64,000 bases of DNA, from contig CAWFLT010000001.1 in NCBI GenBank assembly GCA_963816795.1, forward strand, positions 375,259 to 439,258, read 5' to 3'. The stretch comes from an uncultured Acidobacteriota bacterium. GTDB taxonomy: Bacteria; Acidobacteriota; Vicinamibacteria; Vicinamibacterales; SCN-69-37. Positions 3,717 to 49,735 of this stretch are shown here, piece by piece. Every line of letters starts with the position of its first letter. Position 1 is the first letter of the stretch. Below the pieces are notes generated by a model, which worked only from the letters and a program-made list of their open reading frames with translations, searched no databases and was not told the DNA's origin. The position numbers were made by a program, and so were the translations under genes.

Positions 3717-4053
3717 CAATGGACAATCGACAATCGGCAACCTGCAATGGCAAACACATCGGCCATCGATAATGCCGATGGACAATGGGAAATCTCGCAA
3801 TCGATCCGGATCGCCAACCGACAATCGGGGCAACCAAATCGACCTGCAAATCGGCAATCGGCAATTGACCCGATGGGAAATTGACAAGGGACAATCGAGC
3901 GGCTCGATTGCCCCATTGTCCATCGGCACTTCGCGATTGCCCATCAAACTGAATTGTCCATTCGAAAAGATTTGCCATTACCCATTACCGATCGGGATTG
4001 TCGATTGCCGATGTGTTTGCCATTGCAGATTACCGATTGCTGATTGTCGATTA
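3717..4053. repeat. Family C element: ~335-bp imperfect palindrome built from CAATSG / CSATTG short units with ~45-bp terminal inverted repeats
   Basis: The left arm is rich in CAATGG/CAATCG and the right arm in CCATTG/CGATTG, centred near 3903. The reverse complement of 3717-3762 matches 4007-4053 (gccgatgtgtttgccattgcag..ccgattg..tcgatt). The right terminus is shared with 9107-9165. It lies between convergent genes. Confidence 0.8.
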
Positions 4054-4120
4054 GTCCAGAGACCCGCAAGGTGCCGTGCTCGAGCCGCACCTCGCACCAC
4101 GCACCTCGCACGGCAGCGTG

Positions 4121-6222: not shown

Positions 6223-7499
6223 TTAACGGCGTGGGGCCCCACCCCCACGCCTCGGGCCCGCGCCGGTAGAGCGGCGCGGGGTGTCTGCGTCGCTGACTGC
6301 GACACCGCGAAGCGCGGGAGCGCTGAGCGCCCGAGCCGCGGGGGTGGGGCCCCGCGGCCAAAAGCGGTACGCGACAGCAACACGCCCAGGGTGATGGCGT
6401 TGATCAGCGGCACCTGGATCCACCACGGCAGCGCCGCGTGCACCCACCAGACCTGCAGGGCCACGACCACCGGCAGGTGCACGATATAGACGAAGTACGA
6501 CGCATCGGCGACGTAGCGGCTGCGGCGTGACGGCCGATCGAAGCGCGCGACGAACAGCCCCGTCCACCCCGCCACTGACAGCGTCATCGTCAGGCTCGTG
6601 GCGAAGGATGCCGCCCAGCGCAGCACGTCGGCGTGTGCCGTCGCCCACGGCCCAGCCGTCACTCGCACGGCGGCCAGGCCCGCACCGACGAGACTCGCGA
6701 GTAATCCGAGCACAAGCAGCGACCGCCAGCGCTTCGCAGCGATCTGCAGCCAGGACGGGTGCCGAAACAGCCACCAGCCGAACGTGAACCAGAGACCGTA
6801 CACCGCCATCACGGGCCAGTTCGGGGCGAAGCTGCTGTCGGGTGTGTCGACGTCCAGGCCCTGCATCGTGGCGAGGATCGGCGTGAGCAGAATCGCGATG
6901 ACCACCGGAGCCGAGGCGACCGGTCATCGCCGATTCAAACAGCTGATCGACGCGTGCCAGTGCCGCACGGGCCGGTGCAGAGCGCGCGACGCGCGAGCCA
7001 TCCGACAGCCGAGCGCGAGCAGCGTGATCCAGAAGAGGTAATAGAGGAACCAGAGATGCGTCAGCCTCGTCTCGAGCACCGCCGATCCCAGCGCCAACGT
7101 GTACCACGGGAGCGAGTCGATGAGCGGCGGCAGTTCGAGCCAGCCGGTGGTGCGCCCCCCGGCGATCCAGAGCGCGCCCAGGACGAACTTCATCGGATAC
7201 AGCACGACGAAGAACACCAGCAGAATGCGGCGGAGGCGATCCCACACATAGGCGCGCGTGCCGCGGCGATCGACGACGAGCGCGCCGAAAAACCCCGCCA
7301 TCAGAAAGAAGATCTCGAGGCGGAAGCTGTGGAGGTAGTAGATGAGCCAGCCCAGCGTCGGCGACGGCTCGTCGGTCCCGACCGCCCAGGCACCGCCGGG
7401 CATCACGTAGGTCAGCGTGGAGTGCAGGAGGACGCCGAGCAGCAACGCCCACGCGCGCAGGGCGTCGAGGCCGTGCCACCGTTCGGACGCTGAGGTCAC
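6177..7499 (-). pseudogene. Acyltransferase-3 family membrane protein, interrupted, with its 3' end running through a repeat
   Basis: The N part (track 6924..7550) has WHGLDALRAWALLLGVLLH and HLWFLYYL; the C part (6177..6905) has hydrophobic helices. The two are in the same frame, separated by TGA at 6921-6923 (or by a compensating frameshift pair between ~7005 and ~6920). The likely start GTG 7499 overlaps the upstream TGA (GTGA). The last ~60 codons are encoded by Family A element 6228-6359 and overlap the M20 3' end. Confidence 0.65.
6228..6359. repeat. Family A element (complete hairpin form): two inverted GGGGCCCCACCCCC cores flanking a GGTGTC..GACACC centre
   Basis: Cores at 6233-6246 (+) and 6340-6353 (reverse complement). 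The arms pair over ~30 bp. The right half 6293-6355 is nearly identical to 10522-10584. It lies between convergent M20 and acyltransferase genes. Confidence 0.85.
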
Positions 7500-8248: not shown

Positions 8249-8935
8249 TGCTGAGCTTCACCCCCTTCATTCGCTTCATGTCTACCGATCAACAGCCGGT
8301 TTTTGGCAGTGATCTCTTCCGGGATCTTCATCGTCCAGATCTGATACCCCTGCGCCTTGAGCCGGATTGCGCGCGTCATGTCGATCGCCAGCGCGCCGTC
8401 TGCCCACCCGGAGAGATCGCCGGTGTCACAGGACGAGAGATCGTGACAGCACGGCAACACAGCAAGACTCGCGCGCGCCGCCGCCGCGCGTTCGATCACG
8501 CGATCGGTCAGCGCACCACAGGCGTGGCACGACACCACGAGATCGCCGGCGCCGAGTGGCGACGTCGTCGAGATCCATCGATTCGAAACGAACACGGCCG
8601 GCCAGACGAGGCCATGCGGCAATGAGCGCGTCGTGCAGCGTCGCCGCCGATGGCGGAATCACGCGGTCAACGACGACGGCGGTTGGCGAGGTGTCATCGA
8701 GGAGCAGCAGCGCGTGCGCCAACAGCCCGTGGCCGCCGGCGATATCGACAACCCGGCCGCCACGCACATGACGTCTGACCCGCTTGGCCATCTCCCAGGC
8801 TTCGTACAGTTCCTTGCGCGGCAGGCAGCCAACCTCGCAGATCGCACGCGCCAGACGGTCAAACAGCGTCGAGTTCGGGAAGCGGCCAAGATCGTGCCGC
8901 GTCAGGCGCGCACGGGATGACAGTGAGAAGGCCAA
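8245..8935 (-). pseudogene. Methyltransferase (Methyltransf_32-like, HACG/PCCH motifs) with one frameshift near 8565
   Basis: Track ORFs 8426..8935 (VVDIAGGHGLLAHALLL ... RVRFESMDLDDV) and 8245..8622 (SPLGAGDLVVSCHACGALTD ... LPCCHDL) join if one base is skipped at about 8565. The last codons run into a Family B array (8255-8290). Confidence 0.6.
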
Positions 8936-9165
8936 TTACCGATTACCCATTCCCCATCGCCATCCCATGCCGCCATTCCCCATCGCCATTCCCCATTTCC
9001 CATCGCCATTTCCCATTGCCCATTCCCATCGCCATTTCCCATTTCCCATCCGCACTTCCCATTGCCCATTTCACATTGCCATTGCCATTGCCAAATTGCC
9101 CATCAGGATTGCCGATTGCCGATGTGTTTGCCATTGCAGATTGCCGATTTCCCGATTGTCGATTA
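8936..9165. repeat. Family C half-element: ~230 bp of CCATTSC/CCCATYS short units ending in the conserved Family C terminus
   Basis: Tandem 6-7-nt units (cattcccc, catcgc, catttccc, cattgcc ...) in one orientation only. 9107-9165 matches 3996-4053 at roughly 55 of 60 positions. The terminal GATTA contains the DinB stop codon. Confidence 0.8.
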
Positions 9166-9633
9166 CCCCCCTTTCTTCAACACCCCAATCTGCCCCCCGT
9201 GGTACGCATGGTGCTGGGCGAGGCCGTGCAGCATCACTTCATGGCTCACGCCGGTGGCGAGCTCGCGGCTCTTCGCGCTTTGGGGCGGCGTGGTGAGCTG
9301 CTGAGGTGTCATGGCGCTGACCACCGCGACGAGCGCGGAGTGAGCGTCGAACAGCGTCTCAACGTCGCGCTGCCACGCCGCGGCGTCGTCCCCGGTCGGC
9401 GGCGGCCAGTCCCCGATCTCGGGCAACCCCGGCGGATGACCACCGAGCCGGCGCGTCACCTCCTGCGTCCACGCCGTCAAGTGACGAACGATCTCCCAGA
9501 TCGAATGGGCCGCGGGGATGGGCCGGCTGCGCGCCTGATCAGCCGTGACGTCTTTCAAGAGCGCCTGGATGGAATCGCCGTGCCACGGCTCGCCGGTGAT
9601 CGCCGCGGACAGCTCGTCGATGATGAGTTTCAT
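9163..9633 (-). CDS. DinB-family (DinB_2) metal-dependent protein
   Basis: Only the last 156 codons of track ORF 9163..10419 look real, from ATG 9633. Motifs WHGDSI, IWEIVRHLTAW, HHAYHGGQI (His triad pattern of DinB_2). Confidence 0.75.
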   Translation of the reverse strand: MKLIIDELSAAITGEPWHGDSIQALLKDVTADQARSRPIPAAHSIWEIVRHLTAWTQEVTRRLGGHPPGLPEIGDWPPPTGDDAAAWQRDVETLFDAHSALVAVVSAMTPQQLTTPPQSAKSRELATGVSHEVMLHGLAQHHAYHGGQIGVLKKGG

Positions 9634-10030: not shown

Positions 10031-10262
10031 TCGCGTGGGGCCCCACCCCCACGCTTCGGACGCTCGGGTCGCTCGCTACGCTCGCGCCCTCGCGGTATCT
10101 GTCGTCGCTCTTCTCCGTGTCCTCGTTCTTGATTGCTCGCGGGGCCCCACCCCCGCTCGCGCGCCGCGGCCGGCCTCACTACGTTCGGCCCGCGGCGGTC
10201 AGCTTTCTTAGTTCTTCTCCGTGTCCTCCAGCTCTTCTCCGTGTCCTCGTTCTTCTCCCAAC
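10031..10262. repeat. Family A composite: core - CTCCGTG array - core - CTCCGTG array (forward orientation)
   Basis: Cores at 10037-10050 and 10141-10154. TTCTCCGTGTCCTC units at about 10110, 10215 and 10236. Confidence 0.85.
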
Positions 10263-10514: not shown

Positions 10515-10718
10515 GCGGGCCCTGACTGCGACACCGCGAAGCGCGCAGCGCTGAGCGCCCGAGCCGCGGGGGTGGGGCCCCGCGCGTGGCGTTCTAACGC
10601 TTGGCCACGCGCGCGGAGAGCACGGAGAAAGGGCCAGAGGGCACGGAGAAGAACAGTTGACACCCCGCGCCGGTGTATGGCGCGGGCCCGAGCCGCGGGG
10701 GTGGGGCCCCGCGGCCCT
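10515..10718. repeat. Family A composite in reverse orientation (inverted partner of 10031-10262)
   Basis: Cores (reverse complement) at 10568-10581 and 10697-10710. CACGGAGAA units at about 10619-10655. Its reverse complement has the same modular order as 10031-10262. Confidence 0.85.
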
Positions 10719-10787
10719 AAGCAAAGAAGCGCGCCGCGCCCTGAGCGAGGCCGTATTGCGGCCGAGTCGAAGGGTTCAGTCTCGTAC

Positions 10788-12134
10788 ATGCCCGACAAGT
10801 CCGAGCCCGAGGTCCTGACGGTCGCCGGTCGCGAGGTCCCGATCTCGAATCCGCGTAAGGTCCTCTTCCCGGACGCCGGTCTCACCAAGCTCGATCTGGC
10901 CACTTACTACATCGCGGTCGCCGATGGCGCGCTTCGGGCCGCGGGCGGGCGTCCGAACGTGCTCGTCCGCTATCCCAACGGCGTCAAGGCCGAGTTCTTC
11001 TACCAGAAGCGCGCCCCGGCCTCGCGACCCGATTGGATCGAGGTCGTCACGCTCAGCTTCCCGTCTGGCCGTACCGCCGAGGAAGTCGTGCCGCGCGACG
11101 CGGCCGCGCTCGCGTGGATGGCCAACCTCGCGTGCCTCGAGCTGCATCCCCATCCGGTGCGCGCCGACGACGTCGACCATCCGGACGAGCTGCGGGTCGA
11201 TCTCGATCCAGTGCCGGGCGTCGACTGGGACCAGATTCGCCAGGTCGCGCGGGTCGTCGAAGCGACGCTTGCGGACTTCGGGCTCGTCGGATGGCCGAAG
11301 ACGTCGGGATCCCGCGGCATGCACGTCAACGTCCGCATCAGGCGGGAGTGGACGTTCCATCAGGTCCGCCGCGCCGCACTGGCGCTCGCGCGCGAAGTGG
11401 AACGGCGGGCGCCGTCGCTGGCCACGAGCAAGTGGTGGAAGGAAGAACGCCACGGCGTCTTCATCGACTACAACCAGAACGCCAAGGATCGAACGGTCGC
11501 CGCGGCGTACTCCGTGCGCCCGACGCCTGACGCGCGCGTCTCGGCGCCGCTGACGTGGCCTGAGATCGACGAGTGCGTGCCCCAGGACTTCACGCTGTTA
11601 ACGATGCCGGAGCGGTTCGCCGCAGGCGGCGACCGCCATCAGGGCATCGACGAGGCCGCGGGATCGCTCGAAGCGCTGCTCGAGCTGTCGGCGCGCCACG
11701 AACGCGAAGGCCAGGGCGATGCCCCGTGGCCGCCGCAGTACAAGAAGCAGCCGGGCGAACCGGCGCGCGTGCAGCCGTCGCGGCGGCGAGTACCGAAGCA
11801 TCCGCTCGTCGAGATCGGCCGGGCGGAGAAGAAAGAGGATGCCCTGGCCGGCCTCGAGCGCTGGCGGACACGGCATCCGGAGGCAGCGGCCCATCTCGAA
11901 CCGGCCGACGTGCTCGTCGATGCGATGCGCGGCCGCTTTCACACCTGGACGCGGATCCGCGTCAATCTGCAGCACGTGCCGGAGGCGATCCGGCCCGCAC
12001 AGGAGGCGCTCGATCCGGACGCCGGTCCCGATATCGCCGCCGAGTGGGAAGCGGCGGTGAAGCGAAGTGAGAAGCGCGCTACGAATGGTCGCGCGACGTA
12101 CGAAAGACGCGCTCGAGCTCGTAGGCCGGAGTGA
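10788..12134 (+). CDS. LigD-polymerase-domain / Prim-PolC-like primase-polymerase with C-terminal extension
   Basis: ATG 10788 inside track ORF 10572..12134. Motifs ISNPRKVLFP, LVRYPNG, ELHPHP, DELRVDLDP, KTSGSRGMHV, FIDYNQN. A ~150-aa C-terminal tail resembles stand-alone mycobacterial Prim-PolC. Confidence 0.85.
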   Translation: MPDKSEPEVLTVAGREVPISNPRKVLFPDAGLTKLDLATYYIAVADGALRAAGGRPNVLVRYPNGVKAEFFYQKRAPASRPDWIEVVTLSFPSGRTAEEVVPRDAAALAWMANLACLELHPHPVRADDVDHPDELRVDLDPVPGVDWDQIRQVARVVEATLADFGLVGWPKTSGSRGMHVNVRIRREWTFHQVRRAALALAREVERRAPSLATSKWWKEERHGVFIDYNQNAKDRTVAAAYSVRPTPDARVSAPLTWPEIDECVPQDFTLLTMPERFAAGGDRHQGIDEAAGSLEALLELSARHEREGQGDAPWPPQYKKQPGEPARVQPSRRRVPKHPLVEIGRAEKKEDALAGLERWRTRHPEAAAHLEPADVLVDAMRGRFHTWTRIRVNLQHVPEAIRPAQEALDPDAGPDIAAEWEAAVKRSEKRATNGRATYERRARARRPE

Positions 12135-23039: not shown

Positions 23040-23199
23040 GAGAGCTCTTCTCCGTGCCTTCGAACATTACAGGCGCGGGGCCCCACCCCCGCGCCTCGGG
23101 CGCTCGGCGCCGCCACGCGCGCGCGCCTCGCGGTGTCTCTAGCTCTTCTCCGTGCCCTCTAGCTCTTCCTCCGTGGCCTCACGCTTCTCCGAGCGCTCT
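23040..23199. repeat. Family A element (one core flanked by CTCCGTG arrays)
   Basis: CTCTTCTCCGTGCC, core 23077-23090, ...cgcggtgtc, then CTCTTCTCCGTGCCCTC and CTCTTCCTCCGTGGCCTC. Abuts the TonB-receptor stop codon. Confidence 0.8.
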
Positions 23200-31579: not shown

Positions 31580-31684
31580 CGCGACATTCTACGGCACGCT
31601 GGATCACAACGTGTTTCCACCGACGATTAAGGGATTCATCACGCAACAGTGACCAAGAGCGTTCGAGGGTTCGACCGACGGAGA

Positions 31685-31775
31685 ACGCGGAGAAACGGGG
31701 CTCACGGAGATTGACCGGAAGGGTTGAACGACCTTTCTTGCTCCGTGGCTCCGTACGTCTCCGTGCTCCCCGTGT
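31685..31775. repeat. CTCCGTG-only inverted array (Family A-lite hairpin)
   Basis: ACGCGGAGAA and CTCACGGAGA on the left. CTCCGTG, GCTCCGT, TCTCCGTG and CTCCCCGTG on the right. Confidence 0.7.
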
Positions 31776-31818
31776 GAGATGTCTGTGCGTCGTGTGATTC
31801 GCGGAAGGGCCAGGTGAC

Positions 31819-39374: not shown

Positions 39375-40208
39375 TCAGCGTCTCTTGTCGGTCACCAGCG
39401 CGAGCGACTCGGCCGCCGCCAGGCGGTAGATACCCGGCGCGATCATGATCGCGTGACCTTCTGCCACGAGCGCGCGGTTGCCGCGCCCGGCGTCCGGCCG
39501 TGAGAGCCCGGTCACGCGCGCGAGCTCGCCGCGCACGGTGACACCCGCGCCGGCCAGAAAACAGCGGGCGATCTCGCGCAGCGCGACGTCCCGGCTGACG
39601 CGCCGCCGCAGCGCGTCGGGAAAGCGGCCCACGCCCAGGGTCCAGATGTACGTGAACTTCGGGTGATAGAGCACTTCGCTCGGCACCACGATCATCGCCG
39701 CTTGCAGCTCGTCCAGCGCTTTCGTGAACGCCTGACGATCGCGCACGCCAGATTCGTCGCGCAGGTCGGAGGTCCCCATCTCCCACTCGCGGCGCAGCAC
39801 GCGAAGGACGGCGCGTGCGTTCTTGCTCAGCCGCCGTGCCTCGTCCGATCGGCGCATGCCCCAGACGGCATGAAAGAACGGCACCATGCGCGGCGCGATG
39901 AACAGCGCTTTGCCGCGCGCGAGCTTCGCGTAGTAGACCTTGCCCCGCCGCACGACGTCGTCCTTCAGCGTCCACGCGAGTGACGCCTCGACGTCTTTCT
40001 GCACGTTGCGCGGCATGACCGCATCGCGGCGGCCGCACACGGCGATGTACAGCGAGGGGCCCGGCCGGCGGGCATCGGTGAGGCAGGCCGAGAATCCTAC
40101 CTGCTCGATGAAGTGTTCGGCGTCGATGACCGTGTCGACCTGGCGGGTGCCTTCCCGGCGCCAACGCTGGTCACGGTAGTCCTCGACCTCTTGAGGAAGC
40201 TCAGTCAC
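39375..40208 (-). CDS. Hypothetical protein, possibly a winged-helix DNA-binding / AlkZ-like repair-associated protein
   Basis: Intact 277-aa ORF. The C-terminal part ([29 protein letters not shown]) looks like a winged helix. Sits next to a DNA-alkylation-repair gene. The family assignment is unverified. Confidence 0.35.
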
Positions 40209-40220
40209 GAGAAGAGCCGG

Positions 40221-40907
40221 TCACGCGCGCCGCTTCTTGGTCAGATCACGCAGCGCGTCGTTGCCGATCCATCGCGCCGCCGGATCGGCCATCGCGCTCA
40301 ACCGCTTCGCGGTCGCCGTGGCCGCCGCGTGGAGCTTGGCGTTGCGCGTGCCGATGCGGCGCAGCGCCCAGCTGATGCCCTTCTTCACCAGGTGGCGATC
40401 GTCGGCCGCTTCCTGCTCGACGAGCCGCAGGCCCTTCACGAACTGCTCGTCACGCGCTGTCTTGTCGTGCCCGGCAAGACTGGCCAGCAGGGCGAAGCCG
40501 GCCCGCTTGACGAACTCGTCGCGCTGCACGCTCCACTTGGCGACTTTCGCCCAGGCGTGAGGCGTCTGATCGAACAGCTTGAAGCACAGCGTGTCGCAGA
40601 CGCCCCAGTTGTCGAACGCGCGGCACCATTGATCCATCTGTGCGGACGTCACTCGATCCGGCTCATCGACGAAGGCGGCCAACAGGCGCGCTTCGTACCA
40701 GCCGGTCTTCCACAACGCCGCGGCCAGCGCATGGCTGCGTCCGGTCCGTTTCGCGATGGCCTGGATGTTGGCGAGCGAGACGCCAATCGCTTTCGGCGCG
40801 GTGATGCCGAACCGGGTGAGGTTGTCGAGATCGCGCGTCGTGCGCTTCGCACGAAGCCAATCGAGTACGGTGTCGACCTCTGGCGGAGAGACGCGCTTCG
40901 CGGGCAT
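40221..40907 (-). CDS. DNA alkylation repair protein (AlkD/AlkC-like HEAT-repeat, PF08713-type)
   Basis: ATG 40907 (or 40934) inside track ORF 40221..41075. Motifs WKTGWYEARLLAAFV, FDNWGVCD, EFVKRAGFALLA, VKKGISWALR. Confidence 0.75.
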   Translation of the reverse strand: MPAKRVSPPEVDTVLDWLRAKRTTRDLDNLTRFGITAPKAIGVSLANIQAIAKRTGRSHALAAALWKTGWYEARLLAAFVDEPDRVTSAQMDQWCRAFDNWGVCDTLCFKLFDQTPHAWAKVAKWSVQRDEFVKRAGFALLASLAGHDKTARDEQFVKGLRLVEQEAADDRHLVKKGISWALRRIGTRNAKLHAAATATAKRLSAMADPAARWIGNDALRDLTKKRRA

Positions 40908-40941
40908 GCGTCTCAGTGTATGCCGGAGTAGCATCACGGAG

Positions 40942-41706
40942 ATGGGTGTCGTCCTGACGCCGATTGTCGAGCCGCAAACGATCGCGTTGAGCACGTTGCG
41001 CGATCGGACGCTGGCCGTGGACGGCAACGGTGAGCTGTACCAGTTCCTGGCGTTGATCAGGCTGCGCGACGGCACACCGCTGCAGGACGCGAACGGCCGG
41101 GTGACGTCTCACTTGTCGGGTCTGTTCTTCCGCACGACGCGGTTGATCGCGGAACACGGTCTCAAGCTCGCCTTCGTGTTCGACGGCGCTCCGCCTGCGC
41201 TCAAGGCCGCTGAGCTGGCACGACGCCGCGCGGTGAAGGCCACGTTCGAGCACGCGAGAGCGGAAGCGATCGCACGTGGCGATCTCGACCAGGCGTATGC
41301 CAAAGCCACGATGACCTCGCGGCTCACGCGCGAAATGGTCCAGGAGGCGCGCGAACTGCTCCGCCTCCTCGGCGTGCCGACACTTCAGGCGCCGTCAGAA
41401 GGCGAAGCGCAGGCCGCCCACATGGCGCGGACCGGTCGCGTCTGGGGATCGGCCAGCAAGGACTACGACACGCTGCTGTTCGGCGCCCCGAAACTGCTGC
41501 GGTTCCTGACGATTTCCGGGAAGGAGTTTCTGCCGAGCGTCGGAAAGTTTCGTCCGCTCGTTATGAAGGAAATGAAGGGATTGAAGTTCATGAAGAATTG
41601 GTTTTCGAAAGCCAAACCCTTCATGTGCTTCATCTCCTTCATTCCCTTCATGTCAAGGTTTTGGACACGCGTCAGAAGCGGAAACCGAAGCCAAACCTGG
41701 AGCTGA
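40942..41706 (+). pseudogene. Archaeal/eukaryotic-type flap endonuclease FEN-1 (XPG N+I domains), truncated after about 205 aa
   Basis: ATG 40942. Motifs MGVVLTPIV, LAVDGNGELYQFL, GRVTSHLSGLFFRT, FVFDGAPPALK, LQAPSEGEAQAAHMA, SKDYDTLLFGAPKLLRFLTISGK. These are near-colinear with Pyrococcus-type FEN-1 as I recall it. Homology stops at ...GKFRPL (~41556), the H3TH region (GTDYN) is absent, and the last ~45 codons are Family B repeat. Confidence 0.75.
41563..41652. repeat. Family B element: 90-bp imperfect hairpin of ATGAAGG-type units centred on TTCGAA
   Basis: The left arm 41563-41606 pairs with the right arm 41607-41652 at about 36 of 44 positions. Lies between convergent FEN-1 and OMP genes. 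Confidence 0.8.
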
Positions 41707-42304
41707 AGTTGTTGCTCGTGCACGACTCGCCCCAGCACGGCGGCGCGGAGCTCCGATGCCAGACCATCGTGTCGCCGATATCGAAGCGCAGGATCGTTCG
41801 CGGCGACGGATAGAACTCCAGGACGCCGCCGAGATCCAGCGCGAACTCCGTCCGGTACTCGGGCACCACCAGGAGCCGCGTCGAGATCAGCGCACAGACG
41901 TCACCGGCGCAGTCGACGCCCTGGTCCGAGAGCGACGTGAACCCGGGCCGGACCTTGCCGAACAGGCCAATCCGCTGGTTTCTGACCCCCATCTTCGGGC
42001 CAAAGAACGCCTCGGCCCGGCGGCGCCGATAGATCGTGCCCAATTCCGGCACGGAACTCATCACGGTGACGTCGTCGTTCGGAAACAGCGTGAACTCACT
42101 CTCGAGCGTCATCCAACGCAATGGATCGTAGGAGAACCGGCCGCCCAGCCCGGCGTTGGTGGCGGCGAAGTCGCTGAGGTGGATTGCCGAGAACTGGCCG
42201 CCGACTTCGAACTTGGGAGCGGAGGATTGCGCGAGCGCGGAACCCGCCGATCCAAGACTAATCAGGGCGGTGGCGAAGAACAGTGAACGGAATCGAACGG
42301 GCAT
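41672..42304 (-). CDS. Outer-membrane beta-barrel protein (OmpA-like/OmpW-like small barrel)
   Basis: Signal MPVRFRSLFFATALISLGSAGSALA, alternating beta-strand pattern, C-terminal ...RFGFGFRF. Confidence 0.7.
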   Translation of the reverse strand: MPVRFRSLFFATALISLGSAGSALAQSSAPKFEVGGQFSAIHLSDFAATNAGLGGRFSYDPLRWMTLESEFTLFPNDDVTVMSSVPELGTIYRRRRAEAFFGPKMGVRNQRIGLFGKVRPGFTSLSDQGVDCAGDVCALISTRLLVVPEYRTEFALDLGGVLEFYPSPRTILRFDIGDTMVWHRSSAPPCWGESCTSNNFSSRFGFGFRF

Positions 42305-44637: not shown

Positions 44638-45102
44638 GTGCCCGCTCGAGAGTGTTACCACTGCAAGCAGCTGATCGCCGAAGGCGAGCCGCACGACTGC
44701 TGGACGACGACGGAAGCCGCGCTGACGCGAGATCTCTCGGAGGACCTGCGGGAGGCCTGGGAGCGGCTGCGCGCAACGGCCGAGAAGTTTGGCGAGCAGC
44801 GCATCTACGCGTCGCACCACTCGATCATGTTCTCGCGGGCGTCTTGCTACTTTTTCGTGCGGCCGAAGCGGAAGTTTCTCGAGGTCTGTGTCTTCCTCGG
44901 GCGCCCCGTGAAATCGGCGCTGGTCCATCGCGTCGATCCGGCGTCGAAATCGAAGATCGTGCACACGTTCCGAATCACGCATCGCGACCAGGTGGAGCCG
45001 CCGTTCACTGAGTGGCTGCGGGAGGCGTACGATTTACCGGCAAAACTGGCGACCGGTCAGGCGAGAAAGCGCCAGCTCGGCGTCGGAAAACATCCACCAT
45101 GA
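44638..45102 (+). CDS. DUF5655-like protein
   Basis: Intact 154-aa ORF (GTG start). IYASHHSIMFSRASCYFFVRPKRKFLEVCVFLGR resembles DUF5655. Its stop codon lies in the first unit of a Family B array. Confidence 0.5.
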   Translation: MPARECYHCKQLIAEGEPHDCWTTTEAALTRDLSEDLREAWERLRATAEKFGEQRIYASHHSIMFSRASCYFFVRPKRKFLEVCVFLGRPVKSALVHRVDPASKSKIVHTFRITHRDQVEPPFTEWLREAYDLPAKLATGQARKRQLGVGKHPP

Positions 45103-45818
45103 AGACGTGAAGGCCTGAAGAACAACTAGGGAAACCCTTGCGATCACACGCGCGAGCGCGCGTCAGGGGGGATAAAGCGTTTCAAGGGATCGTGCTGCAT
45201 TTCCAGCCAGGAACGCCCTTCATTCACGACTCGGTCGCTGTCGCCTGGACGACAGCACAATGCTCGTGACGCCCTGCACCAGACGCTGGACGTTGAAGTT
45301 GATGATCAGCGCCTGCGGGACGTCCAGTAACTTGAGGTACGTCAGTGCCTGGGCGCGGTGTATGGGCAGGACCTTCGCAATCGCCTTCAGCTCGACGAGC
45401 AACTCGCCTTCGATCAGGTAGTCAACGCGGTACCCCCAATCGAGCTTGATCCCCTTGTACCGCAATGGCAGCGAGGCTTCGCGAACGAAGCTGAACTCAG
45501 ACACGCTCAACTCATGGGCGAAGCACTGATCGTACGTCGACTCCAACAAGCCCGGGCCAAGTTGGCGATGGACCTCAATCGCACACCCAATCACCTTCCG
45601 AGCCAGGGGCGTCTCGTAGTACGACATGCAGCCGTCCGTGCAAGCAGCCTGCCAGCGTGGTCGCGCCAGAATTTCAAGAGTTCCTGATGGGAGTTGCAGT
45701 TTCTGCAATGCCCGGCGATCTTCTTGACGTGCTTGACCTCCGGACGCGCCGTTGCCCGTGTGATCTTTGAGGGTTTCGCCAACCCTTCTTCACGGTCTTC
45801 ACGTCTTCATGGTGAAGG
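45099..45818. mobile_element. Candidate MITE-like cassette: GxxExxY gene bounded by ~25-nt imperfect terminal inverted repeats of Family B units
   Basis: Left is ATGAAGACGTGAAGGCCTGAAGAAC (45099-45123). The reverse complement of 45786-45810 is ATGAAGACGTGAAGACCGTGAAGAA, with the first 14 nt identical. Lower-GC interior. Inserted between convergent genes. Confidence 0.35.
45220..45627 (-). CDS. GxxExxY protein (PDDEXK_3 nuclease-fold family)
   Basis: ATG 45627 inside track ORF 45220..45708. Motifs GPGLLESTY (GxxExxY), DYLIEGELLVELKA, LIINFNV. Confidence 0.8.
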   Translation of the reverse strand: MSYYETPLARKVIGCAIEVHRQLGPGLLESTYDQCFAHELSVSEFSFVREASLPLRYKGIKLDWGYRVDYLIEGELLVELKAIAKVLPIHRAQALTYLKLLDVPQALIINFNVQRLVQGVTSIVLSSRRQRPSRE

Positions 45819-49441: not shown

Positions 49442-49473
49442 GTGTCTGAAAGAGCTTCAACCACAAGACCTCA

Positions 49474-49735
49474 ACGTGAAGGTCGTGAAGAAGGGCAAAC
49501 TTTGGGTTTGCTGGCCGCGTCAACCGACGCATTCAGACTTCTGGCCGCGTCCCAGAGCGGTCTCGAGCGACCGAAGCACGTGAAGCTCTCCCGCTGAATA
49601 GCTCACGCGCGGCTGTGGGGTTGCCTGTACAAGTCCTTCATCCCCGAATCAGCGCCAGTAGCTGACGGAGGGTTGCGCCTCTTGCCGAACCGTCTTCAGT
49701 CCTTCACGACTTCACGGTAAATGTTTTTCACGGGT
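49474..49735. repeat. Family B inverted arrays flanking a ~190-bp ORF-less interior (empty-cassette-like)
   Basis: Left is CGTGAAGGTCGTGAAGAAGG (49474-49498). The reverse complement of the right array (49692-49735) is CGTGAAGTCGTGAAGGACTGAAGACGG. Confidence 0.6.

Follow-up and report, generated by a model that had tools for sequence, protein, structure and literature searches.

The window analysed here is a stretch of 64,000 nucleotides (nt; 64 kb) from contig CAWFLT010000001.1 of an uncultured Acidobacteriota bacterium, and the element in question is an open reading frame (ORF) of 254 amino acids (aa) in which an archaeal-type flap endonuclease-1 (FEN-1) gene breaks off at a palindromic repeat. 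A preliminary description, made from the sequence alone, had drawn attention to it. The locus consists of the following parts, with positions counted along the window.

40942–41706, plus strand: FEN-1-containing ORF, 254 aa
40942–41562, plus strand: remnant of an archaeal-type FEN-1 gene, codons 1–207, recognised by Pfam, by model TIGR03674 and by identity to the full-length proteins P0001 and P0125
41534–41560, no strand: native 27-nt near-palindrome (CGAGCGTCGGAAAGTTTCGTCCGCTCG) in the FEN-1 coding sequence, an inverted-repeat pair that intact alleles have too
41563–41651, no strand: palindromic repeat element (hairpin) of 88–90 nt, defined by its arms (41563–41595 and 41619–41651), its fold and its family membership
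41563–41706, plus strand: non-homologous ORF tail, residues 208–254 and stop codon, the translation of the hairpin (MKEMKGLKFMKN...FMCFISFIPFM) and of the antisense of the neighbouring gene's 3' end
41652–41671, no strand: residual native spacer from the former FEN-1 stop to the stop of the convergent outer-membrane-protein gene; the sister contigs L082 and L203 have homologous spacers here

The remnant extends from the N domain through the helical arch to the middle of the I domain. In Pfam, XPG_N (PF00752) matched residues 6–100 with E = 1.1e-13, covering profile positions 7–99 of 101, and XPG_I (PF00867) matched residues 144–194 with E = 5e-17 over profile positions 1–50 of 89 only, which means that the I domain is incomplete; in the orthologue P0001 it is whole. 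The NCBIfam model TIGR03674 (fen_arch) aligned with residues 1–201 of the 254-aa ORF over profile positions 1–200 of 338 and gave 244.5 bits; this is under the equivalog cut-off of 351.95 bits because the C-terminal 40% is absent, and the full-length sister-strain protein P0001 lies above it with 392.1 bits. The Pol I/ExoIX-type model 5_3_exonuc_N (PF02739) gave no match to the ORF at E ≤ 0.01 in the Pfam and NCBIfam searches. The preliminary description was thus right in assigning the gene to the XPG-type FEN-1 of archaea and eukaryotes and not to the Pol I/ExoIX type, and the sequence motifs that it quoted are all present in the ORF.

The last FEN-homologous codon is that of V207 (GTT, 41560–41562), which directly adjoins the first hairpin base at 41563, and no FEN homology was found beyond V207 in the 254-aa ORF. 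The gene had been described as truncated exactly at the repeat hairpin, and the match indeed stops at 41563; the accompanying statement that homology ends 7 nt before the hairpin was wrong, since it runs through V207 and abuts the hairpin base. The tail had been regarded as repeat-encoded, which holds for its hairpin-derived residues but not for the remainder, which comes from the antisense of the convergent gene's 3' end. The 254-aa form is on record once, as P0124, the window's own protein.

An intact gene of 331 aa is present in three collinear contigs from other assemblies (L001, L082 and L203), so that the full-length copy which the preliminary description had suggested looking for at this locus in relatives does exist. 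Nucleotide identity to the window is ~96% for L001, ~94–96% for L082 and 98.4% around the gene for L203, and all share with the window the order AlkZ-related gene, AlkD-like gene, FEN-1, outer-membrane-protein gene and VWA protein gene. Window residues 1–207 are 100% identical to those of the full-length proteins P0001 and P0125 and differ from P0002 at one position. Alignment with L203 revealed a clean replacement, in which its positions 10622–11008 (387 nt) correspond to window positions 41563–41652, the 90-nt hairpin. The 387 nt lost consist of codons 208–331, the stop codon and 12 nt of spacer.

The hairpin is absent from the FEN-1 site of L001, L082 and L203. The 18–20 nt that follow it on the 3' side (TCAAGGTTTTGGACACG...) are native spacer shared with L082 and L203, so the right junction is uncertain by a few nt only (about 41647–41655). 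Neither residues 208–331, searched with tblastn, nor the corresponding 376-nt segment, searched with blastn, were found elsewhere in the 64-kb window. Arrays of TGAAG near FEN-1 were found in none of 81 loci of other relatives, and consequently no relative was found that combines an intact gene with a hairpin in the spacer.

An alignment of 12 orthologues contains the invariant acidic residues D27, D81, E153, E155, D174, D176 and D237, which correspond to the seven metal-binding carboxylates of the FEN family, in human FEN1 D34, D86, E158, E160, D179, D181 and D233 (PMC5499597). Six of the seven catalytic carboxylates are kept in the window remnant, and the seventh (D237, in GTDFN) is deleted. 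The helix-three-turn-helix (H3TH) motif for DNA and K+ binding (GIGPKKA) follows residue 207 and is hence absent from the window copy; the preliminary description had correctly reported the H3TH region and the C-terminus as missing. Residues of the H3TH region of FEN-like enzymes form part of the active site and bind duplex DNA (PMC5499597).

In the AlphaFold2 (AF2) model of P0001, the predicted H3TH helix pair comprises residues 224–234 and 247–257, and the part of the full-length model beyond the break contains one beta-strand (209–212) and seven helices. With the same shallow alignment, AF2 reached a predicted local distance difference test (pLDDT) score of 68.6 and a predicted template modelling (pTM) score of 0.69 for the full-length protein versus 46.7 and 0.42 for the truncated ORF, of which residues 174–254 have pLDDT < 50. 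The comparison is weak but consistent, and it suggests that the fold of the truncated protein would be destabilised.

Among the 120 best homologues, 115 are at least 320 aa long, 114 contain the G[TSG]DFN motif with D237 and 113 the G[IV]GPKKA motif of the H3TH region. The C-terminal half is, as far as sequence conservation tells, strongly constrained across the family, and short forms without H3TH, which would have told against the preliminary description had they been common and conserved, are neither (115/120 at ≥320 aa). Natural short forms were considered as a candidate class and rejected: many matches of 170–280 aa occur in a library of 50% representatives, and the seven that were read proved to be contig-end fragments or to carry frameshifted tails. 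As a separate observation, the 231-aa protein P0101 of the acidobacterial FEN-1 clade ends in ...FRPLTP, residue 208 coinciding with the position of the window breakpoint, which could reflect a contig that ends at a repeat, or mere chance. Frameshifted C-terminal tails were also seen in FEN-1 copies in or near the clade (L010, L011, P0126, P0129 and P0146), either as long-read errors or as independent inactivations.

The age of the break can be judged from codons 1–207, which differ from L203 by 11 synonymous and no non-synonymous changes and from L001 by 12 differences, all synonymous. Four substitutions occur in the window alone, and every one of them is synonymous. If one assumes that random changes are synonymous in roughly a quarter to a third of cases, four of four would arise by chance with a probability of about 0.5–1%, which indicates that purifying selection acted for most of the lineage's separate history. 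This leaves a very recent deletion or continuing selection on the fragment, and recency is favoured in view of the lost parts, namely the seventh carboxylate, the H3TH and the constrained C-terminal half. Signs of relaxed constraint, such as non-synonymous changes or frameshifts, are not present in the remnant, a result that fits a very recent event and does not discriminate it from continued selection.

The hairpin itself has arms of 33 nt, 82% complementary, which enclose a 23-nt loop that is itself a small palindrome. Each arm consists of four 9-nt units (A/T)TGAAGNNN, located at 41564–41595 and 41619–41650. The RNA fold has an energy of -46.4 kcal/mol (z = -5.7, with 0/200 shuffles as stable) and the DNA fold one of -24.8 kcal/mol (z = -5.4), and the G+C fraction is 0.49 within the hairpin versus 0.66–0.69 around it. 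Rfam contains no family for it, the only matches being two sub-threshold ones to microRNA (miRNA) models. Lacking a T-tract, the hairpin does not qualify as a canonical intrinsic terminator, and a scan of 40600–42000 for promoters and terminators found none.

Arms of the same kind, built of 9-nt CATGAAGNN units with a TGAAG core and an invariant CATGAAG core, define a repeat family. An exact-pattern scan of metagenome contigs for CTTCATNNNCTTCATNNNCTTCATG yielded at least 120 loci. Under a strict family definition, which calls for two inverted arms with at least three TGAAG-core units each at 9-nt spacing, 31 copies were counted in 23 of 120 metagenome loci, and the window hairpin falls within the arm definition too. 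The flanks ACC-ATGAAG ... CTTCAT-GGT, with ACCA at both ends, accompany 30 of the 31 metagenome copies. The window hairpin is without these standard flanks, with GTTA at its left end and, read as the reverse complement, GACA at its right. Its right tip (CTTCATGTC) is a minor variant that occurs also at window 8256–8282 and in the metagenome locus L115, and its left end looks clipped.

The contigs that host the family range from 38% to 67% G+C, and the family would appear to span distant taxa. Loops vary from 8 to about 770 nt, and the copies are mostly intergenic, 17 of 21 not being spanned by an ORF of at least 120 codons. Selection for a perfect helix or RNA stem was considered and rejected, as agreement between the arms at the four positions that separate TGAAG cores is only 44%; two of the four are a near-constant CA, and the 2 nt that truly vary are essentially not complementary. 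Within the sequences compared, what is conserved is the 7-mer repeat rather than the perfection of the stem.

The hairpin resembles the REP/BIME, Correia/NEMIS, RUP and MITE-type elements in being a short, A+T-richer, strongly folding palindrome of usually intergenic location, the presence of which varies between close strains and which here adjoins a disrupted gene. It differs from them in that the arms are tandem 9-nt CATGAAG units whose variable positions are not kept complementary, in that no target-site duplication is seen here, and in that its autonomous-looking relatives carry a GxxExxY/PDDEXK_3 gene and no known transposase.

Two further observations concern local copies. A solo three-unit arm CTTCACCCC CTTCATTCG CTTCATGTC without a partner lies at window 8256–8282, inside the last codons of a 125-codon minus-strand ORF and just upstream of the start codon of the next gene. 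The sequence (A/G)GGTTTT(T)[C/G]G is found 3' of the right ends of most local copies (41651, 45812, 49715 and 8283+, as well as L204 610–800); the T-run after 41651 and 49715 also occurs in element-free sister strains and may be a preferred target rather than part of the element.

The locus is best read, with a probability of roughly 85%, as an archaeal-type flap endonuclease-1 gene that became a pseudogene recently. The truncation is seen against intact orthologues at the same locus in close relatives, which is what marks a unitary pseudogene, and the window copy fails the features that define FEN-1, namely a complete I domain, the seventh carboxylate, the H3TH and the score cut-off. Of the two options that had been put forward earlier, a decayed gene or a naturally minimal nuclease, the first is supported and the second is not, given that sister strains at 94–98% identity carry the 331-aa gene with its H3TH. 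As such, the finding is mostly of an ordinary kind: a repeat has recently inactivated a gene and left a FEN-1 pseudogene.

In the proposed course of events, a cargo-less hairpin of CATGAAG units would first have inserted into the short gap that separates FEN-1 from the convergent outer-membrane-protein gene, an intergenic position as is usual for the family. A deletion would then have extended from the native palindrome (41534–41560) to the left tip of the new hairpin, either in the same event or later, stimulated by the hairpin. The right end of this near-palindrome lies 2 nt before the left breakpoint, and it may have been a structural hot spot for deletion. Insertion followed by deletion is favoured by the right tip, which is complete for the local variant, the flank-less left tip and the native palindrome 2 nt from the left breakpoint; a single insertion-with-deletion event is a possible alternative order. 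The outcome would be a 254-aa ORF without D237, the H3TH/K+ site, one core beta-strand and seven helices, with a hydrophobic repeat-encoded tail, and the corresponding protein is expected to be catalytically dead and poorly folded.

Several points weigh against inactivation. The remnant has no frameshift, internal stop or amino-acid change, a state equally expected if the fragment were still useful, and it remains an open 254-aa ORF that is called as a coding sequence in the source record. The event order is only inferred, the left hairpin tip being without the usual (G/A)CC flank and the right junction being ambiguous. Moreover, the source is a metagenome-assembled contig.

The first of these points would be accounted for if the 207-residue N and I core with its repeat-encoded tail were a functional minimal nuclease, or a regulatory or dominant-negative fragment under selection, which nevertheless seems very unlikely. 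The exclusively synonymous substitutions (all 4 of the window-unique ones; 11 synonymous and 0 non-synonymous versus L203), the frame that stays open for 254 codons and the retention of the helical arch with six of seven carboxylates are all compatible with it. Four synonymous changes are, however, too few to demonstrate ongoing selection, and a recent deletion predicts the same. The sole record of the form is P0124, the window itself; other homologues, save a few, are full length with H3TH, and the seven short library representatives read were contig-end fragments or frameshifts. D237 and the H3TH, which are gone, are parts of the active site or DNA-binding surface in the superfamily (PMC5499597), and the AF2 model of the truncated protein is poor (46.7/0.42).

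Similarly hard to credit is the notion that the truncation is an assembly or consensus artefact of the metagenome-assembled genome (MAG) and that the organism's real gene is intact. The truncated allele is unique and comes from a MAG contig, and palindromes and strain mixtures are hard for assemblers. Yet the sequence on either side is collinear with that of the sister strains (98%), the junctions are clean, and the inserted DNA is no local fold-back copy, members of its family being found at 8256–8282, at 45095–45814 and in unrelated metagenomes. Further presence/absence differences of hairpins exist between the same strains within the window, and an assembler would not invent a family-typical palindrome of 90 nt while dropping 387 nt.

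A split gene, the C-terminal half of which moved elsewhere in the genome so that the two halves cooperate, can be set aside as highly improbable: residues 208–331 are untraceable in the 64-kb window at the protein or DNA level, the gene is one contiguous unit in sister strains at 98% identity, and the deleted DNA is replaced by a repeat with no rearrangement junction.

Apart from the pseudogene, the immediate neighbourhood holds three genes of the shared order.

40221–40907, minus strand: DNA_alkylation gene (AlkC/AlkD-like HEAT-repeat glycosylase family), 228 aa, PF08713 with E = 8.6e-24, divergent neighbour of FEN-1
39375–40208, minus strand: AlkZ-related gene, 277 aa, adjoining the AlkD-like gene, PF24741 with E = 2.4e-26
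41672–42304, minus strand: beta-barrel outer-membrane protein gene, 210 aa, convergent with FEN-1, OMP_b-brl with E = 5.8e-05, below the gathering score

The divergent pairing with an AlkD-like gene, noticed already in the preliminary description, is real. The start codons of the two genes are 34 nt apart, and the AlkD-like gene is likewise called at 228 aa in L001 and L203. A conserved AlkD–FEN pairing was considered and rejected, since it occurs only in L001, L082 and L203 and is absent within ±3 kb in 11 other acidobacterial loci. The AlkD/AlkZ neighbourhood is no basis for a dedicated repair module, and no functional link is claimed.

The outer-membrane-protein gene is syntenic in L001, L082 and L203, and the truncated ORF enters its 3' end by 35 nt. 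A VWA protein gene is among the window neighbours, and MacB/FtsX and PEP-CTERM genes were found in the homologous region of the 98%-identical sister contig. The G+C content of the FEN-1 remnant equals that of its surroundings. With bacterial neighbours and orthologues in Acidobacteriota/Vicinamibacterales, the bacterial chromosome context claimed for the gene is sound.

A larger relative of the hairpin, 3.5 kb away from it, carries a gene between its arms.

45095–45814, minus strand: GxxExxY/PDDEXK_3 cargo element, arms and gene, absent from the sister strains

The arms of this cargo element, CACCATGAAGACGTGAAGGCCTGAAGAAC (45095–45123) and CTTCTTCACGGTCTTCACGTCTTCATGGTG (45785–45814), are made of CATGAAG/GTGAAG units, and the GxxExxY gene occupies about 45220–45627 on the minus strand. 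A GxxExxY gene lies between arms in 8 of 120 metagenome loci in addition to the window element. The cargo matches TIGR04256 with 126 bits and PDDEXK_3 with E = 1e-34 to 1e-43, and its start codon is often inside an arm, so that the protein begins MKxMKxMK. In the short copy L167, the first 43 codons of the GxxExxY gene are left, which suggests that cargo-less hairpins are deletion derivatives. PDDEXK_3 has been listed with 'function unknown, multiple transfers' (PMC3424549), and nothing relevant on the repeat sequence or on the function of GxxExxY/PDDEXK_3 turned up in the searchable literature. In an observation of its own, L105, L134 and L185 contain tandem CATGAAG-unit hairpins, spaced by about 110 or about 170 nt, beside a GxxExxY gene, and L134 has up to seven left arms in its tandem hairpin series.

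The cargo element replaces a G+C-rich hairpin, present in L001 and L203, together with the last codons of the upstream DUF5655 gene, the protein of which has 154 aa in the window versus 169 and 166 aa in the sister strains. At 49442–49722, directly 3' of the stop codon of an esterase gene, lies a palindromic element of the GTGAAG type of 281 nt, and this site occurs in three allelic states, the element being absent in L203 and represented in L001 by its right part only. The alleles compared show what would be a fast turnover of palindromic elements between the window, L001 and L203. The GxxExxY protein may catalyse mobility, for which the presence/absence pattern between strains and the placement of the cargo between the arms are indirect indications.

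Other repeats were seen in the window besides. A G+C-rich inverted repeat of another family, with 56-nt arms, lies at 6230–6356; related copies at L001 6019–6189 and L203 14418–14611 sit where the window has the GxxExxY element. Periodic-arm hairpins of a second type, with CACGGAG/CTCCGTG units and a shared GGAAGGGTT...CCTTTCT loop are located at 31645–31812, 10210–10258 and 23137–23199, the first of which differs from the copy at the same site in L203. Long palindromes or arrays of heptamer-like units (GACAATC/GATTGCC, CCATTCC and ATTACCC) occupy 3717–4060 and 8935–9168; GCCGATGTGTTTGCCATTGCAGATT is common to both, and the ends of 3717–4060 are exact reverse complements over at least 22 nt.

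The cargo-bearing elements recall the intervening sequences in the 23S rRNA of Coxiella and Leptospira (PMC4990558), which behave as selfish elements and in which terminal inverted repeats pair into a long stem whose loop contains a small ORF without known function. The elements described here differ in lying outside rRNA and in having a PD-(D/E)XK-fold protein as cargo.

Intact relatives of the FEN-1 gene are numerous. When 5.8 billion proteins were searched, hundreds of 331 aa came up at 78–90% identity, some labelled 'flap endonuclease-1 [Vicinamibacterales bacterium]'. Among genomes sampled at one per Genome Taxonomy Database (GTDB) species, full-length copies at 65–81% identity were found in Acidobacteriota/Vicinamibacterales MAGs, on contigs as long as 2.6 Mb, and the next-best matches were Bathyarchaeia at 51–56% identity. 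By neighbour joining, the acidobacterial sequences group together in a single clade whose sister group is rich in Bathyarchaeia; because this distance tree comes from a similarity-biased sample, the donor assignment is provisional. The best-matching solved structures are archaeal FEN-1s (E about 1e-90), with human FEN1 at 1e-53. A census of the PIN superfamily in 2017 counted 2 bacterial versus 363 archaeal members of the XPG_I family (PMC5499597), and the literature search found no paper on FEN-1 in Acidobacteria/Vicinamibacterales.

The gene would provisionally be an old archaeal acquisition by an ancestor of the Vicinamibacterales-like Acidobacteriota, with Bathyarchaeia as its nearest surviving relatives, and has since been inherited vertically under purifying selection. 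Its native G+C and its orthologues across Vicinamibacterales-like MAGs show that this strain did not acquire it recently. The horizontal transfer advanced earlier is thereby upheld as an old event common to the acidobacterial lineage but not as a recent one in this strain, in view of the native G+C and of orthologues at 65–85% identity. The intact enzyme presumably acts, as its family membership indicates, as a 5'-flap endonuclease in lagging-strand or long-patch repair synthesis. Two other MAGs labelled bacterial, of Acidiferrales (L019) and Methylomirabilota (L022), were rejected as carriers and not counted, since their sequences nest inside Bathyarchaeia and have tails like the box that binds PCNA; their FEN-1 copies could be mis-binned archaeal contigs or independent transfers.

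Compared with archaeal FEN-1 (3ORY, 1MC8, 1B43 and 1RXV), the intact orthologues align over residues 1–323, pass the equivalog cut-off and possess the seven carboxylates and the H3TH, and the window copy is collinear for residues 1–207. The bacterial clade differs in being ~10 aa shorter, in its bacterial host and in having no C-terminal PCNA box, and the window copy in having no residues 208–331. About 100 of 115 bacterial orthologues end in ...P-[PA]-x-[RGK]-L-F-COOH (e.g. ...PPPRLF), and the archaeal sequences in the same alignment carry the C-terminal PCNA-binding box QxxLxxWF (QxSLxxWF ends). Neither the window copy nor the intact bacterial orthologues have this PCNA-interacting protein (PIP) box. 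It may be speculated by analogy that the C-terminal x-L-F resembles bacterial beta-clamp-binding peptides. The Pol I N-terminal domain, ExoIX/Xni and FenA/YpcP share with FEN-1 the PIN-like FEN superfamily fold and the expected removal of 5' flaps and RNA primers (PMC5499597). Models of Pol I and 5'-3' exonucleases match the full-length orthologue only marginally and in the H3TH part only, with 20–23 bits against cut-offs of 305–720.

A broader and tentative proposal, which is probably wrong in at least some part, joins the two subjects. According to it, the hairpin would be a cargo-less member of an undescribed, phylum-spanning class of mobile palindromic cassettes with CATGAAGNN ends and an autonomous form bearing GxxExxY/PDDEXK_3, which turn over between strains by replacing resident DNA; and FEN-1 would have been domesticated across the order, its PCNA box swapped for an x-L-F peptide able to dock on the bacterial clamp.

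The locus offers a dated, base-resolved case of a palindromic repeat removing part of a gene. GxxExxY/PDDEXK_3, a very large orphan family, is here tied to a specific repeat architecture, which gives a testable handle on its function. XPG-type FEN-1 had been almost unknown in bacteria as of the 2017 census, and a large acidobacterial lineage of soil now proves to have it as a fixed and conserved gene passed on by vertical inheritance. The loss of the PCNA box and the gain of a conserved C-terminal tail make it a natural experiment in the cross-domain transfer of a replication and repair nuclease, and the loss of the gene in this strain suggests that the enzyme is dispensable, at least in the short term.

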